From the NCBI RefSeq assembly GCF_035285525.1, contig NZ_JAYKGW010000235.1:1-32000 (forward strand): DNA of 32,000 bases, written 5' to 3'. The position numbers and the translations under genes are program-made. The first letter of the stretch is position 1. Every line of letters starts with the position of its first letter. Positions 13,929 through 22,953 of this stretch are shown piece by piece. The notes under the pieces were generated by a model. It did no database searches, was not told the origin of the DNA, and saw only the letters and a list, made by a program, of their open reading frames with translations. The stretch comes from Okeania sp. (GTDB lineage Bacteria > Cyanobacteriota > Cyanobacteriia > Cyanobacteriales > Microcoleaceae).

Positions 13929-14648
13929 GTGAATAATATTCGTACTGTTTCAGATACTAAAAAAGCCTTTTATAATTTTCACACTCGTCCGATTAATTCA
14001 ATATATAATCGGGTCGTTGAAGAGTTGCTAGTGGAAATGCACCTGATTTCCGTTAATACTAATTATAACTATGATCCGTTTTATGCTTTGGGTGTAGTTA
14101 CAGCTTTTGACCGTTTTATGCAGGGGTACTCTCCAGAGGAAGACAAAATTTCGGTTTATAATGCTTTGATCGAAGCACAGGAAGAAGACCCCAACAAATA
14201 CCGTACTGATGCGAAAGGATTAGAGGATGCAGTTCGACAAATGTCAGCATCGGAACTCCTGTCATGGATTTGTTTGTCAACCAATATAGATGGTACTCAA
14301 AAATGGCAAGATTATTTAAGGGGTATTTCTGAGGAATCAAAATTTAAGTATAGTCGCTTGTTCGCTATAGGTTTATTTACTTTATTAGAAATAGTAGATA
14401 CAGAATTAATCAAGGAAAAAGAGAAACGCACGGAAACTCTCAAAAAAGTTTGTCAAGCTTTAAATTTGCCAGAAGAAAAGTTTATGAAAGATATAGATTT
14501 GTATCTTGGTAACTTGGAAAGAATGTCTCAAACTCTTAGCGCTATGGAAGATACTCTCAATGCAATGAAGAAAAAACGAGAACAACGTAGTTTAGAAAAA
14601 GAAAATAATTCTAATACTCTTAAGAATAGTTCAGAAGGTAGTAACTGA
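13929..14648 (+). CDS. thf1: Thylakoid formation protein Thf1 / Psb29
   Basis: 239 aa with a GTG start. The N-terminus [37 protein letters not shown] is characteristic of cyanobacterial Thf1. Only ordinary gene in the window ending in TGA. Confidence 0.88.
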
Positions 14649-16120: not shown

Positions 16121-16999
16121 CTATTCCATACCATTGTACCGCCAAGGAACCGGGTCTACAGCTTGACCATTTACATATAATCCCCAGTGAAGATGAGGGC
16201 CTGTAGATGCACCTGTAGTTCCTACAGTACCAATTTCCTGGCCAGCTTTCACCATATCACCCTTCTTGACATTAATACTATTCAAATGCATAAAAATACT
16301 GGTTACTCCTTGACCGTGGTCAATACCTACAGTATTACCATGAATTTCATAACCTTGGGATTCTAATCCTACCAGGGCCACACGACCAGAGGCAGGAGCT
16401 ACTACAGGGGAGCCATTGTAATCTGCATAATCTACTCCACGATGATAATAGTCTTCAGCAAATTCTCCATTATAGTATCTTCTTACCCCGTATACGGTAC
16501 TAACCGGACCATTGTTGGGGCGAAGGAAAGGACCATTCCACAATTTTTCTGGTGTGACAAGTTGTTTAAATGCTCCTACTGTATCAAATTCTAAATCTGT
16601 TCCTTCGAGAGATTCTTTATCAGGGGACAACCAAATAGATTGAGTTGGAAAAGAACGATTTTGCAAGTTTATAGTGAGGTTTTGTGTACCTGTATTAGTT
16701 GTTACTTGCACTTGTCTGGAGCCAGATTTATCTAAGGGAGTTGTCGGTAAGAATGCTCGAAATTTATTTTGTCCAAGAGAAAAGGAGGGGTAAGTTTTTC
16801 CATCCATATTAACAGTAGGAGGGGGGAGGTTTCCATCTGGTTGCTGAATGAAAACAGATATAGTATCTCCTAGTTTTGGGTTAGTGGGAGTTATCTGTAC
16901 GGTTTGACTGAAACCAGGTAAAACTAAGACTAAAACTGCTGTCACAGTAGCTAATATTAAACTTTGAATAAACTGCTTCAATTTAGATGATAAAAACAT
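16121..16999 (-). CDS. Secreted M23-family metallopeptidase
   Basis: 292 aa. N-terminal hydrophobic signal/anchor, HRGVDY (HxxxD) and GPHLHWGLY (HxH) zinc motifs. Confidence 0.88.
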   Translation of the reverse strand: MFLSSKLKQFIQSLILATVTAVLVLVLPGFSQTVQITPTNPKLGDTISVFIQQPDGNLPPPTVNMDGKTYPSFSLGQNKFRAFLPTTPLDKSGSRQVQVTTNTGTQNLTINLQNRSFPTQSIWLSPDKESLEGTDLEFDTVGAFKQLVTPEKLWNGPFLRPNNGPVSTVYGVRRYYNGEFAEDYYHRGVDYADYNGSPVVAPASGRVALVGLESQGYEIHGNTVGIDHGQGVTSIFMHLNSINVKKGDMVKAGQEIGTVGTTGASTGPHLHWGLYVNGQAVDPVPWRYNGME

Positions 17000-17066
17000 T
17001 GATTATTTTTGTTGAATATTCTCTAGATTAATGAAATTAAAGTTGATTTTTTTTGACTCCTACATC

Positions 17067-17326
17067 TAGGGTGTGTCATCAATTAGATGTTAGAAGCTTT
17101 ATCAATAAAAGTAGTGGACTGACAAAGTCAAAACTGTTCATTACATCATTGGGGGCGGGTTTATCTAAGCTTGTGAAAATCGTTTTTAACTGAGAAACCC
17201 GCCCCTACCGACTGCACAATTTCAGGTATGTGCTCACTGTATCTGAACCTACTCAATCGCAATCACCATTTTTACATAACAGAGAATAGCCTTTTTGTCA
17301 ACTTATTTAATTAATGACACGCCCTA
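17067..17326 (+). mobile_element. MITE, family 1, copy 1 (about 260 bp, TA-flanked)
   Basis: TA|GGGTGTGTCATCAATTAGATG ... TTAATTAATGACACGCCC|TA, with terminal inverted repeats matching about 17 of 20. Internal 11-bp GC stem GGGGCGGGTTT/AAACCCGCCCC. No ORF. A highly similar copy (by eye) lies inverted at 30929-31194. Confidence 0.85.
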
Positions 17327-17366
17327 ATCTAAGTATTTTCAAAATTAATTGATCATCGGGTATAGT

Positions 17367-17610
17367 TAGGGCTGGCTGATTAAATATGGAAGCATTAACA
17401 AATAAAGGTTTCAGCAAGTTTAGGTCTGGAAGAAGTACCAGCTTTTAGGCCTGGAAAGCTAAAAAATCTAGTATTTTTGGCTAATTGTGACAGAAAATCC
17501 AGGGATAATTCTTCCTCCTACCTCTTTTGTAATTCCCCTGACTCCTGGATTGCAGGATGGCAGGATTCTGACTCCTCCCCCTACCACTCATACTTTTTCA
17601 GCAAACCCTA
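17367..17610. mobile_element. Candidate MITE, family 2 (TA|GGGCTGGCTGA ... TCAGCAAACCC|TA)
   Basis: 9/11 terminal inverted repeat, TA on both flanks, no ORF. Confidence 0.45.
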
Positions 17611-17795
17611 GTTAGTTAATGTCGGGCAAAACTGAGGTTACTTTAGTCATTATACTCTGTGTTTTGAAAATTACTTCAGAGCTATTAAATTGGGAATTTT
17701 GGATGGAATTGTGATTAGGCATCTCCAATAATAAGAAAATTAAATCAATTATGGCAGAGAAATTATCAATTATTTCTTCCTACTCCCTCTTTATA

Positions 17796-18008
17796 TTAGT
17801 TTTTTGGTTTAAGATAAACAATAGATTGTCGCCAGATGAGAATTGGTAAATCATACTGATCTAAAAGACAGATACAATCTGGGTCTTGCCAGAAAATTTT
17901 TCCTACATGGAGGTCGTTAGTAATTAGTTTTAGTTCTACTTCTTTTTTTTCTTTAATATAAGTTTGAATCTGGCGAACACTAGGTAAACTGGTATCAAAT
18001 TCAGACAT
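17796..18008 (-). CDS. hfq: Cyanobacterial Hfq-like (Sm-fold) protein
   Basis: 70 aa. FDTSLPSVRQIQ.YIK....VE.KL.T.D...G...WQDPDC, matching short cyanobacterial Hfq. Divergent from dapF, as is typical in cyanobacteria. Confidence 0.85.
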   Translation of the reverse strand: MSEFDTSLPSVRQIQTYIKEKKEVELKLITNDLHVGKIFWQDPDCICLLDQYDLPILIWRQSIVYLKPKN

Positions 18009-19613: not shown

Positions 19614-20759
19614 ATGGGGGGAGGTATTTATTTAATTCAAGATAATGACCAACTTGTGGAAATGACTGAACAAGCTTATGATTCTGAAGATCAACTGCAA
19701 GAATATCTGGAAACTTATCCTAATCTTTTAGCAGGAGATGATATAGATAGAGGTATTCCTAGAAGATGGTTATTAATTTCACAGGACATAGCCACATCAA
19801 AAGAAGAAGATATAACTCAGGAATGGGCATTATCTCATTTATTTCTTGACCAAGAAGCAATTCCGACATTAGTAGAAATAAAACCGACTCATAATAGAGA
19901 TGTTCGGCAAAAAGTGGTTGGTCAAATGATTGATTATGCAGCTAATGCCGGAGTTTATTGGCCTATCGAATCAATTATTACTAAGTTTGAGGTTAATTGT
20001 CGAGAGCATGGTCGCGATCCAGAACAAGTATTTGAAAAGTTTCTAGGGAAAGATGCTCATGAGGAGAAGTTTTGGCAGAAAGTGAAAACTAATCTACAAG
20101 CAGGTAAAATTCGTTTAGTATTTGTAGCAGAGAATATTTCAGCAGAACTACGAAGGATTGTAGAATTTCTGAATGGACAGATGGATCCAGTAGAAATTTT
20201 AGCACTAGAAATTAAACAGTATGTTAGTCAGGATGGTTTAAGGACTTTAGTTCCTAGGGTAATTGGTCAAACTACGGAAGCGCAACTGAAAAAATCAAGT
20301 ACCACTCGCGAGAGAAGGAAGTGGGATGAGACATCTTTTTTTCAGGAGTTTAAAACGAGATGGGGTGCTGATGAAGCATCAATAGTGATAAAAATTCATA
20401 ACTGGGCGAAAAATCAAGGACCTTTGGTGAAAATTCAGTGGGGTAGGGGGGACGTTTATGGTGGTTTTGCAGCAATAGTTAATCAGCAAGGGAGAAAAAA
20501 TCTAGAGTTGTTTAGTATTGATATTTCTGGTAGTCTAGAAATTTATTCTAATAATTATAGTTGTCAACCTCCATTTAATAGTAATAGTAAATGGTTAGAG
20601 TTGAGAGGTAAACTTAGTTCTATTGGTTTAGCTTTACCTGGAAATGCTGAGGAGTTTAGAGCGCCTAGTCTACGTTTATCAACTTTGGAAGATGATGCAG
20701 CATTGGAGCAAGTAATAGAAACTTTTAATTGGGTTATTGAGGAAATTAATCAAGGTTAA
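19614..20759 (+). CDS. Orphan protein with an N-terminal RecB/NucS-like PD-(D/E)xK nuclease core and an uncharacterised C-terminal domain
   Basis: 381 aa. D79 (HLFLD), E88-I-K90 (TLVEIK) and Q104xxxY108 (GQMIDYAANA) have the spacing of RecB-family nucleases. The lead-in (QLVEM.E..Y.SEDQLQEYLETYPNLL) resembles NucS/DUF91-type proteins. The C-terminal 170 aa are unassigned. Confidence 0.6.
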   Translation: MGGGIYLIQDNDQLVEMTEQAYDSEDQLQEYLETYPNLLAGDDIDRGIPRRWLLISQDIATSKEEDITQEWALSHLFLDQEAIPTLVEIKPTHNRDVRQKVVGQMIDYAANAGVYWPIESIITKFEVNCREHGRDPEQVFEKFLGKDAHEEKFWQKVKTNLQAGKIRLVFVAENISAELRRIVEFLNGQMDPVEILALEIKQYVSQDGLRTLVPRVIGQTTEAQLKKSSTTRERRKWDETSFFQEFKTRWGADEASIVIKIHNWAKNQGPLVKIQWGRGDVYGGFAAIVNQQGRKNLELFSIDISGSLEIYSNNYSCQPPFNSNSKWLELRGKLSSIGLALPGNAEEFRAPSLRLSTLEDDAALEQVIETFNWVIEEINQG

Positions 20760-20918
20760 TTCAGTTATTAGTTATTAGTTATCAGTTATATCAGACCTAG
20801 ATAATTAATTATTGTAGTCATTGTGACTGTAAGGGAGTGAAAGGAAGCAATGTTAGGATTTTAGGAGATTGTTTCCTATTGTCGAATGTGATATTCAAAC
20901 AAATTCTATATTATTATT

Positions 20919-21017: not shown

Positions 21018-21265
21018 ATTAATGGTGCTGATAAATTTTAATGTTTAGGGATTTAGTTAGCTAAAACCTCAAGTAAATTTATAGCAGATTTTATCGAGCA
21101 TTTAGTAACATTAATATTATAGGTAGGATACTTGTGTTACTGTTTAACGGTGCTGATAGATTTGAATGTTTAGGGATTTAGTTAGTTAAAACCTCAAGTA
21201 AATTTATAGCAGATTTTATCGAGCATTTAGTAACATTAATATTACAGGCAGGATGCTTGTGTTAC
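21018..21265. repeat. Tandem duplication, 2 x about 125 bp, directly upstream of and overlapping the kinase 5' end
   Basis: GGTGCTGATA starts at 21024 and 21149 (period 125). The copies are near-identical by eye through ...GAGCATTTAGTAACATTAATATTAYAGGYAGGATRCTTGTGTTAC. Confidence 0.9.
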
Positions 21266-22117
21266 CTTATTTATGATCTTGATAATATCATACTTTTATA
21301 TCTAGGTGTAAATAATTTCAAAATAATTATATCTGATTCTCTTGTCGGTGAAATTCTTGGTGGTAGGTATGACATTTGGGCTGATATTGGAAAAGGTGGA
21401 AGTAGTTTTGTTTATTTGGCTAAAAAATTAAATAACAATGAACGTTATGCTATGAAAACAATTTCTACAGATGAAAAAAATGCAATTAAATTCTTAGAAA
21501 GAGAGACTGATACTTGAAAACGTCTTAATCATCCTCATATTGTAAAGATTATAGATTATGGTTATGAAGAACGTCATAATTTGGTTTATTTAGTATTAGA
21601 ATATTTAGATGGTCAAGATATTAGAAATTATTTTGATAGTGGGATTGATTTAAAAACAAAGTTGAGTTGATTTTTGCAGATTATTGATGGGATTAGTCAT
21701 GGTCATGGAAAGAATATTATTCATAGGGATATTAAACCAGATAATATTAAGGTGATAGATATTGATGAGGAACCACAAGCAAAAGTTTGAGATTTTGGTA
21801 TAGCTATTATTACTACTACTTTGTTAACAAATACGATTAGAAGTTATCATACACCTTTATTTTCTGCGCCGGAACAAATTAATCTTGAGGGAGTTTCTAG
21901 AGATTCGGATGTTTTTTCTTTGGGGATGACTTTTTTATATTTATTATCAACTCCGTCGGAGGGAATTAAATTTCAAGATGAAAGGGATAAAAATATTCTT
22001 TATGAGTCTGTTGAAGAAGTTTTAAATGATTATGAAAATTCTCAAAATTTAATAGAAAATTTTCAAGCTGGGACAAGTATAGATCGCGAACAACGTCTTC
22101 TTACAACAAAATATTGA
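21257..22117 (+). pseudogene. Hanks-type Ser/Thr protein kinase in a single frame interrupted by three in-frame TGA codons, with no ATG start
   Basis: Motifs IGKGGSSFVY, YAMK, FLERE, HPHIV, LVLEYLDG, HRDIKPDNI, DFGIA, SAPE and DVFSLG all lie in one frame. TGA occurs at 21515-21517, 21668-21670 and 21788-21790, and the terminal TGA is at 22115-22117. The 5' limit is nominal (TTG). Confidence 0.8.
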
Positions 22118-22187
22118 GATAGGTTTGCGAATTAAACCGACAGAAAATAAATTGGAAAAAGATATATAAGTTTTTTTGAGGGGAGGG

Positions 22188-22511
22188 ATGGATAACGAAA
22201 TTAAAGATTTTGAAAATAAGATTAGAAAATATCATTCACTTCTTGAAGCAATAGTGCTTGATTATAAATCAGTAGGCTATCCTTTCTATGTCTTATGTCT
22301 TCACTTAACTTATTTGGCAAATAGAGAATTACAATTATTAGAATAGTTTGTGCTGAAATCTATTACTAATGGGTTGGCAAGAATACAAGAAATTTATAGT
22401 TTTCTTGGTATAGAAATTTATCAAATAGAAAAAGTATTATCAGAATTAATTTCTAGAGATTTAGTCAAAAAACTTGACAAAATAGAGAAGTTATGTGCTT
22501 GCCAATATTGA
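22188..22511 (+). pseudogene. Small ORF downstream of the kinase with one in-frame TAG; possibly a winged-helix-like protein
   Basis: ATG at 22188 is preceded by GAGGGGAGGG. TAG at 22344-22346 and TGA at 22509-22511. The segment FVLKSITNGLARIQEIYSFLGIEIYQIEKVLSELISRDLV looks HTH-like, but the assignment is weak. Confidence 0.35.
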
Positions 22512-22640
22512 TTTTATCCTCCAAAGGTGGATTTGATATAATAGTAAATCCGGTTATTATAGACTGATTATAAAGTGAAGCATAATATATATATTTGTAA
22601 TCAGCTTTTCGTTCATCGGATTTGGTATTAATAGCTAAAG

Positions 22641-22689
22641 TGCTGACTACTAATAGTTGTTGGAGCAGCATTTCCCAGGAAATGCTTAC
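22641..22689. repeat. Dispersed hairpin repeat copy (inverted orientation)
   Basis: TGCTGACTACTAATAGTTGTTGGAGCAGCATTTCCCAGGAAATGCTTAC. Confidence 0.65.
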
Positions 22690-22722
22690 ATTATTTTAAT
22701 AATAAATTTAAAGGTAATTAAA

Positions 22723-22953
22723 ATGAATTTAGCTGATTTAAAAATAGGAGAAACAGGAATAGTCAAGCAAGTATTAGAGGTTGGTTGTCAACCAGGAATA
22801 GTTCAGAGATTAACAGCAATGGGAATAGTTTCTGAGAGGCCAGTGCAGGTCTTACGAAAGGCTATATTTAATGGACCTTTGCACATTCGAGTTGGAGCAA
22901 CCACAGAAATAGCTATTCGACTTCAGGAAGCAGAAATGATTATTATTAAATAA
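22723..22953 (+). CDS. feoA: Ferrous iron transport protein A
   Basis: 76 aa from the ATG at 22723 (the track ORF starts upstream inside a repeat). SH3-like FeoA pattern L..L..GE.G.V........G...RL.AMGI..........A..GP..I.V. Confidence 0.85.
   Translation: MNLADLKIGETGIVKQVLEVGCQPGIVQRLTAMGIVSERPVQVLRKAIFNGPLHIRVGATTEIAIRLQEAEMIIIK

Follow-up and report, generated by a model that had tools for sequence, protein, structure and literature searches.

Type I Mokosh is an anti-phage system encoded by two genes, one for a protein that combines a Ser/Thr kinase (STK) domain with a COG1112 helicase, and one for a PLD nuclease (Millman et al. 2022, bioRxiv 10.1101/2022.05.11.491447). Here we analyse a locus at positions 21329-22487 of a 32,000-nucleotide stretch of the Okeania sp. 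contig NZ_JAYKGW010000235.1 (hereafter the window) which, judged from its sequence, is what is left of a chromosomal operon of this type, at a locus conserved in Okeania and Dapis with the gene order hfq-dapF-p381-mkoA-mkoB. Okeania and Dapis are marine filamentous cyanobacteria. A first inspection of the DNA (the original prediction) had picked out an intact-looking Ser/Thr kinase gene interrupted in frame by TGA codons and followed by an open reading frame (ORF) with an in-frame TAG, and had offered recoding of TGA as one explanation. The identity of the locus and its anatomy are shown here, as are its ancestral codons and a relaxed pattern of substitutions; on this basis, it is very probably a multiply inactivated type I Mokosh pseudogene that arose by ordinary decay, without recoding. 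The result is mostly a negative one: an apparent recoding signal became a dead copy of an already-known defence system once the syntenic relatives had been aligned.

The syntenic relatives agree with type I Mokosh in both gene order and domain order, and the two ORF stumps of the window correspond to the N-terminal parts of the profiles for MkoA and MkoB, with the kinase motifs kept. In contrast to the described system, the copy in the window is non-functional, lacking a start codon, the helicase domain and the PLD domain and carrying three nonsense codons. Genomes and phages in which TGA is reassigned (to Trp in code 4, to Gly in code 25) are similar only superficially, through a good ORF broken solely by TGA. 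In the window, however, the TGA codons stand at Leu positions, TGA is used by the host as a stop, TGG encodes Trp, the gene is truncated and no suppressor tRNA is seen. Ordinary pseudogenes and decaying defence islands share with the window a mixture of lesions (nonsense mutations, start loss, large deletions and a duplication), a flattened codon-position spectrum and independent lesions in sister lineages. The difference is that all kinase nonsense codons of the window came by the rare TTA to TGA path, whereas TAA would be expected in about 50% of cases.

Identity of the locus

The kinase frame opens with TTG at 21257 and holds, up to 22117, a full set of Hanks kinase motifs in one frame (Pfam Pkinase, E 5.8e-38). 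Stop codons occur in it only at 21515, 21668, 21788 and 22115, all of them TGA; a TGG is found at 21377 and ATA codons at 21323 and 21329. The second frame, ORF2, begins with ATG at 22188, preceded by GAGGGGAGGG, and has a TAG at 22344 and a TGA at 22509. The original prediction had placed the three internal TGA codons and the TAG correctly, and had rightly listed a TGG still in use at 21377-21379.

The nearest proteins to the kinase come from Okeania and Dapis, with 80-85% identity, and the 381-aa window protein p381 (19614-20759) is 100% identical to an NCBI protein of 'Okeania sp.'. The relatives L082-L085 and L087 have in common the gene order hfq-dapF-p381-kinase-AAA_11/AAA_12 helicase, and in Dapis BLCC M229 (L085) a PLDc_2 protein comes next after the helicase. 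Kinase and helicase form one frame of 1191 codons in Okeania SIO3I5 (L084), interrupted by a single TAA. Comparison with the PADLOC Mokosh profiles (PDLC03920 and PDLC03922) identified the family. The read-through product of L084 matches MkoA across the full profile (E 9e-209), and the PLD protein of Dapis M229 matches MkoB (E 2e-72). Of the two window frames, the kinase aligns with positions 6-239 of the 1112 in the MkoA profile PDLC03920 (E 3.2e-38), at its N-terminus, and ORF2 with positions 4-73 of the 610 in the MkoB profile (E 3.2e-11), likewise at the N-terminus. On the window kinase, MkoA is slightly outscored by generic kinase models, as expected because the stump is a bare kinase domain.

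Regarding the components of the system, the N-terminal Ser/Thr kinase domain of MkoA is present in the window as a pseudogene only. The helicase domain (AAA_11/AAA_12) is deleted there and present in the syntenic relatives, and the PLD nuclease domain of MkoB is also deleted, with a full MkoB including PLDc_2 found in Dapis M229. The reading frames are not intact, having suffered an ATG to ATA change, three TGA codons, one TAG and two deletions.

Anatomy of the remnant

A tblastn search of the window with MkoA of SIO3I5 recovered only amino acids 1-256, at 21329-22096, with 82% identity. The mkoA remnant at these positions (forward strand; Pfam, PADLOC, tblastn and DNA alignment) comprises codons 1-256 of about 1191, with the STK domain; 935 of the 1191 codons (~78%) are gone. 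The kinase that had been called intact-looking is only this first part of the gene. Its DNA aligns with the relatives without a gap, at 88-90% identity, and homology ends at 22096/22097. Junction alignments to L084 and L085, together with tblastn, place the deletion junction at 22097-22099, where mkoA codons ~257-1191 with the helicase (~2.8 kb) have been lost. The sequence resumes ~10 nt past the mkoA stop of the relatives with a single ~65-bp repeat unit from the mkoA-mkoB spacer (22098-22161), which blastn places immediately behind the mkoA stop of L084 (13699) and L085 (14475). This unit follows the mkoA stop in relatives, so the deletion has cleanly taken out ~2.8 kb, beginning at codon 257 and reaching a little beyond the stop. 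The repeat unit is also the source of the TGA at 22115. It had been taken to end the kinase gene, and is an intergenic codon rather than the native stop.

The ~65-bp unit reads …ACAACRAAATATTGAGA…GGTTTG…AAATTGGAAAAA and has 24 blastn matches in L084 (13699-16139). Its copies span ~2.4 kb of Okeania SIO3I5 where mkoB is expected; the window has one copy. The unit may be MITE-like or belong to a spacer array.

The mkoB remnant (22164-22487, forward strand; blastn, tblastn and PADLOC) consists of a 24-nt leader with a Shine-Dalgarno sequence and codons 1-100, which encode a winged-helix-like N-terminus. Only amino acids 1-100 of MkoB were found in the window by tblastn (22188-22487, 73% identity), and 22164-22472 has 87% DNA identity to the leader and first codons of mkoB in Dapis M229. 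The TAG at 22344-22346 (forward strand) lies at Glu53 of MkoB, a G>T change of the GAG present in Dapis M229. A second junction, due to deletion or rearrangement, was placed approximately at 22473-22490 by tblastn and blastn; there mkoB homology ends and the upstream sequence of feoA is next. Downstream of the stump the window has feoA-feoB, and the sisters have EamA and a permease.

Upstream of the kinase, Tandem Repeats Finder (TRF) detected a tandem duplication of the p381-mkoA spacer at 21019-21265 (125 bp x 2, 94% identical); at its end stands the TTG with which the long kinase frame begins. The 125-bp unit is single-copy in L083, L084, L085 and L087. With this duplication and two large deletions, the locus does not fit the claim that it had never been broken by an indel. 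The only independent contig of this strain (Logan SRR19514071, L081) breaks at 21091, inside the duplication.

Ancestral codons and substitution pattern

Alignment of 18 close homologues puts the three TGA sites on conserved Leu columns (TDT-L-KRLNHP, KLS-L-FLQII and AKV-L-DFGIA). On the forward strand, the TGA at 21515-21517 corresponds to Leu63, for which, of five relatives, two have TTG and the others TTA, and the metagenome contig L088 has TGA. The TGA at 21668-21670 corresponds to Leu114 and the one at 21788-21790 to Leu154, the residue before DFG, with TTA in 6/6 relatives at both sites and Leu154 conserved in nearly all homologues. All three are second-position T>G transversions at Leu codons (TTA to TGA). 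The former start codon lies at 21329-21331 (forward strand), where an ATA aligns with the start Met of the homologues and with ATG in 6/6 aligned relatives, a G>A change.

These codons decide several earlier proposals. The lost ATG had been sought in the ATA at 21323 or at 21329; the latter is aligned with the ATG of every relative. The codon before DFG, where Trp had been called unusual, is Leu154. A model of G>A transitions at Trp codons, possibly by a deaminase, is contradicted by the origin of the TGA codons from T>G at TTA (Leu) and of the TAG from G>T at GAG (Glu), although the inactivation of a kinase module that it implied is supported. Ordinary decay had been said beforehand to predict unrelated residues at the stop positions of homologues, and indels and other stop types in sister strains. 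Both predictions are borne out: the homologues have an unrelated residue, Leu, at these positions, and indels and other stops are the rule among the sisters.

Changes were polarised with four sister genomes, and comFB, hfq, dapF and p381 of the window genome were used as flanks. On the window branch, the kinase part has 24 private substitutions, of which 17 are non-synonymous and 7 synonymous (codon positions 6/9/9), compared with 99 in the flanks (63 synonymous and 36 non-synonymous; codon positions 18/15/66). Remnant and flanks differ in synonymous versus non-synonymous changes (Fisher p = 0.003), and the second-position share of changes differs from the flanks (p = 0.02) and from the sister kinases (p = 0.003). 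Missense changes are found at near-invariant kinase positions of the window copy. Constraint on the kinase remnant thus looks relaxed.

Recoding

Under a second proposal, TGA (and TAG) would be decoded or read through by means of an alternative code, a suppressor tRNA or selenocysteine, yielding a functional kinase. The kinase motifs, all kept in one frame with TGA as the sole interruption, are what such a gene would show. The TGA codons, however, fall on conserved Leu and not on Trp, Gly, Cys or selenocysteine, and no genetic code is known in which TGA encodes Leu. Codes 4 and 25 would have TGA at conserved Trp or Gly and not as a stop, and neither is the case here. As for a selenoprotein, the sites are Leu and an Rfam search of the window gave no family match and no selenocysteine insertion sequence (SECIS); a tRNA search of the 32 kb found none.

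Codon usage in the rest of the window points the same way. Stop usage in 21 other plausible genes is 15 TAA, 5 TAG and 1 TGA, the last being thf1 (13929-14648, Pfam ThylakoidFormat), which had correctly been named as the only other gene to end in TGA. The neighbour genes contain TGG 92 times, and the conserved ones have no in-frame TGA. The host of the window uses the standard code 11. The recoded gene would also have to work with its start codon lost, 935 of 1191 codons deleted and the PLD domain of its partner deleted, under a relaxed substitution pattern. The relaxed substitutions, the missing start and the deletions therefore rule out a functional recoded gene, and decoding or read-through of TGA deserves hardly any credence.

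Ordinary decay remains the preferred explanation. In the intact system, MkoA consists of an N-terminal Ser/Thr kinase and a Upf1-like COG1112 helicase, and MkoB is the PLD nuclease. Inactivating hits in the window copy include the change of ATG to ATA, the three changes of Leu TTA to TGA and the deletion of the ~2.8-kb helicase part; further hits are the deletion of the MkoB PLD domain, the Glu to TAG change in the mkoB stump and the tandem duplication of the upstream spacer. The stops may be regarded as ordinary nonsense mutations gathered under relaxed constraint; TTA, the commonest Leu codon, is a single step away from TGA. We infer that the lesions built up neutrally, once the function had been lost or a costly defence system had been selected against.

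Composition of the stop codons

The pattern of stops had been claimed to be non-random. For the inferred ancestor of the kinase part, 128 of 2304 single changes are nonsense (64 TAA, 38 TAG and 26 TGA), and TTA to TGA makes up 15 of the 128 paths. With 24-56 neutral substitutions, the probability of at least three nonsense changes is 0.09-0.6, so the number of stops is unremarkable, and that of at least three TGA-creating hits is 0.001-0.025. Of this claim, the number of stops is thus ordinary, and it is the all-TGA composition that is unusual. Because the pattern was picked post hoc from a scan of many windows, we read the all-TGA composition as a small-number, post-hoc coincidence.

Several observations weigh against plain decay as a complete explanation. 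Neutral models give a probability of 0.0005-0.002 for three or more TGA codons in the kinase part when TAA and TAG are both absent, and the three T>G changes of the window branch are exactly the three stops. The Dapis-like L088 has TGA at codon 63 too, and no recombination tract common to it and the window is obvious. The remnant has diverged little at synonymous sites (7 changes), and its neutral period may therefore have been short. Finally, the base calls are those of the assembly.

Candidate causes of the TGA-only pattern were considered one by one. Recombination as the source of the TGA in common with L088 is not supported, as there are only three scattered exclusive sites and no tract near nt 188, although a very short conversion may have occurred. 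The other candidates were rejected. A T>G mutator is not indicated by 3/24 T>G changes in the remnant and 8/99 (8%) in the flanks (p = 0.45), nor is a hotspot in T[T]A context, in which only 2/17 T>G or A>C flank changes of the window lineage fall. New -35 boxes created by TTGA gave a promoter-like count of 13, against 11.9 +/- 3.5 in shuffles, with a match at site 1 only. For quasi-palindrome or template-switch mutagenesis, the changes in minimum free energy (-0.7, -0.9 and -2.1 kcal) lie within the null of -0.2 +/- 1.55. Opening of an antisense ORF by TAA to TCA is not seen, as no minus-strand ORF of at least 60 aa extends across 21257-22117.

It is nevertheless conceivable that the locus is a pseudogene whose TGA-only composition is not chance. 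The cause would be a T>G (A>C) process at 5'-TTTA-3', or serial selected knock-outs of an orphan, possibly toxic kinase after loss of the helicase, in which leaky TGA codons needed reinforcement. The low probability under neutral models, the TT[T>G]A context common to all three sites and the recurrence of the codon-63 T>G in L088 favour such a process, and the inactivation of all copies sampled in this Mokosh clade would agree with a cost. The window branch, however, has no T>G enrichment, few flank T>G or A>C changes (2/17) are in T[T]A context, and hairpin stability and promoter-like counts are at null level. Moreover, the nonsense codons of relatives are mostly GAA to TAA, stops after the first knock-out should be neutral, and the pattern was chosen post hoc from a large scan. 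We consider this alternative unlikely. The narrower form of it, in which the three TTA to TGA changes in TT[T>G]A and an independent codon-63 TGA in L088 reflect a real process, be it a T>G hotspot or repeated selection for stops in an orphan Mokosh kinase domain harmful without its partners, is distinctly unlikely. The improbable composition and the codon-63 recurrence are the residue of interest of this locus, and would matter only if the bias were genome-wide.

Some or all stops could also have arisen by error, during sequencing or during assembly of a draft or metagenome-derived genome, the true codons being TTA or GAG. The genome does look like a draft, its longest contig measuring 60 kb, and the sole independent contig (L081) ends short of the remnant. 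Look-ups with P0003, P0123, the 52-aa ORF2 product and the 98-aa kinase fragment yielded no independent assembly of the pseudogene. In addition, the metagenomic L087 and L088 have many stops together with singletons rich in G>T and C>A, possible artefacts. In contrast, the pseudogene call does not depend on the stops: the start codon is lost, two large deletions and a duplication are present, and near-invariant sites carry missense changes. The 21 neighbouring ORFs are open, without in-frame stops, and most flank T>G changes are synonymous, as expected of real evolution. Error as the origin of the stops is therefore very unlikely, and decay of a Mokosh operon remains the better account.

The locus in related genomes

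No intact mkoA was found among the nine copies examined in this cyanobacterial clade, that is, the window and eight others (L082-L085 and L087-L090). The lesions in the other eight are all different and include TAA, TAG and TGA stops, 1-nt indels, insertions of 157-260 nt and truncations. SIO3I5 has one GAA to TAA change, and L087 has four in-frame stops (three GAA to TAA and one CAG to TAG) with no frameshift. Two 1-nt deletions and an insertion of 157 nt are found in KiyG1, and an insertion of 260 nt in Dapis M229. In Dapis M172 a poly-A run has gained 1 nt, SIO3C4 (L090) has insertions and a truncation, and L089 has a GGA to TGA change in the glycine loop. Regarding mkoB, it was found in only one of the eight, Dapis M229. 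Some of these lesions are in low-coverage metagenome contigs with private changes rich in G>T and C>A, and may be sequencing artefacts. Overall, a chromosomal type I Mokosh locus of the Okeania/Dapis clade has been independently inactivated in every sampled copy. This repeated inactivation fits the view of defence systems as costly and quickly lost.

L088, the metagenome contig JAAUYK010105235.1, was found by pattern scan and is 95% identical to M172 and 88% identical to the window. It also has GAA to TAA at codon 57. Among its 12 private changes, six are C>A or G>T and 11 are non-synonymous. Decay may be the cause of this pattern, or else an artefact of low coverage or oxidative damage. In L089 (GCA_034691665.1, 419-970; protein P0022), translation with table 11 puts an in-frame TGA where the glycine-rich loop has its conserved Gly (L*EGGS). 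In the database, P0022 has W at this position and does not match the table-11 translation; its source apparently translated TGA as Trp. The four independent homologues P0018, P0020, P0022 and P0023 have divergent tails from about residues 170-176, in the TNTIRSYHT region, where L090 has an insertion of ~170 nt. This region may be a recurrent site of insertion or frameshift.

Neighbouring genes

Okeania SIO3I5 and Dapis M229 have a Na+/H+ exchanger/TrkA gene (764-772 aa) between hfq and the gene for the M23 peptidase; in M172 this exchanger gene is found upstream of hfq. Only a 26-aa trace of it (17616-17693, E 0.005) is found in the corresponding part of the window (16999-17796), and Okeania KiyG1 has two small fragments. 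The exchanger remnant is a further gene loss by deletion near the mko locus. Just after the p381 stop, window positions 20761-20789 match a tandem array with a heptanucleotide period that is expanded in Dapis M172 (L083 6977-7170), where many overlapping blastn matches occur at 7-nt offsets. On the other side of the remnant, the FeoA domain of feoA (22657-22953) begins at residue 23, and there is an ATG at ~22724. The listed TTG start at 22657 is probably too far upstream. A hairpin at 22667-22686 (AGCATTTCCCAGGAAATGCT), terminator-like or operator-like, lies inside the putative 5' end of feoA.

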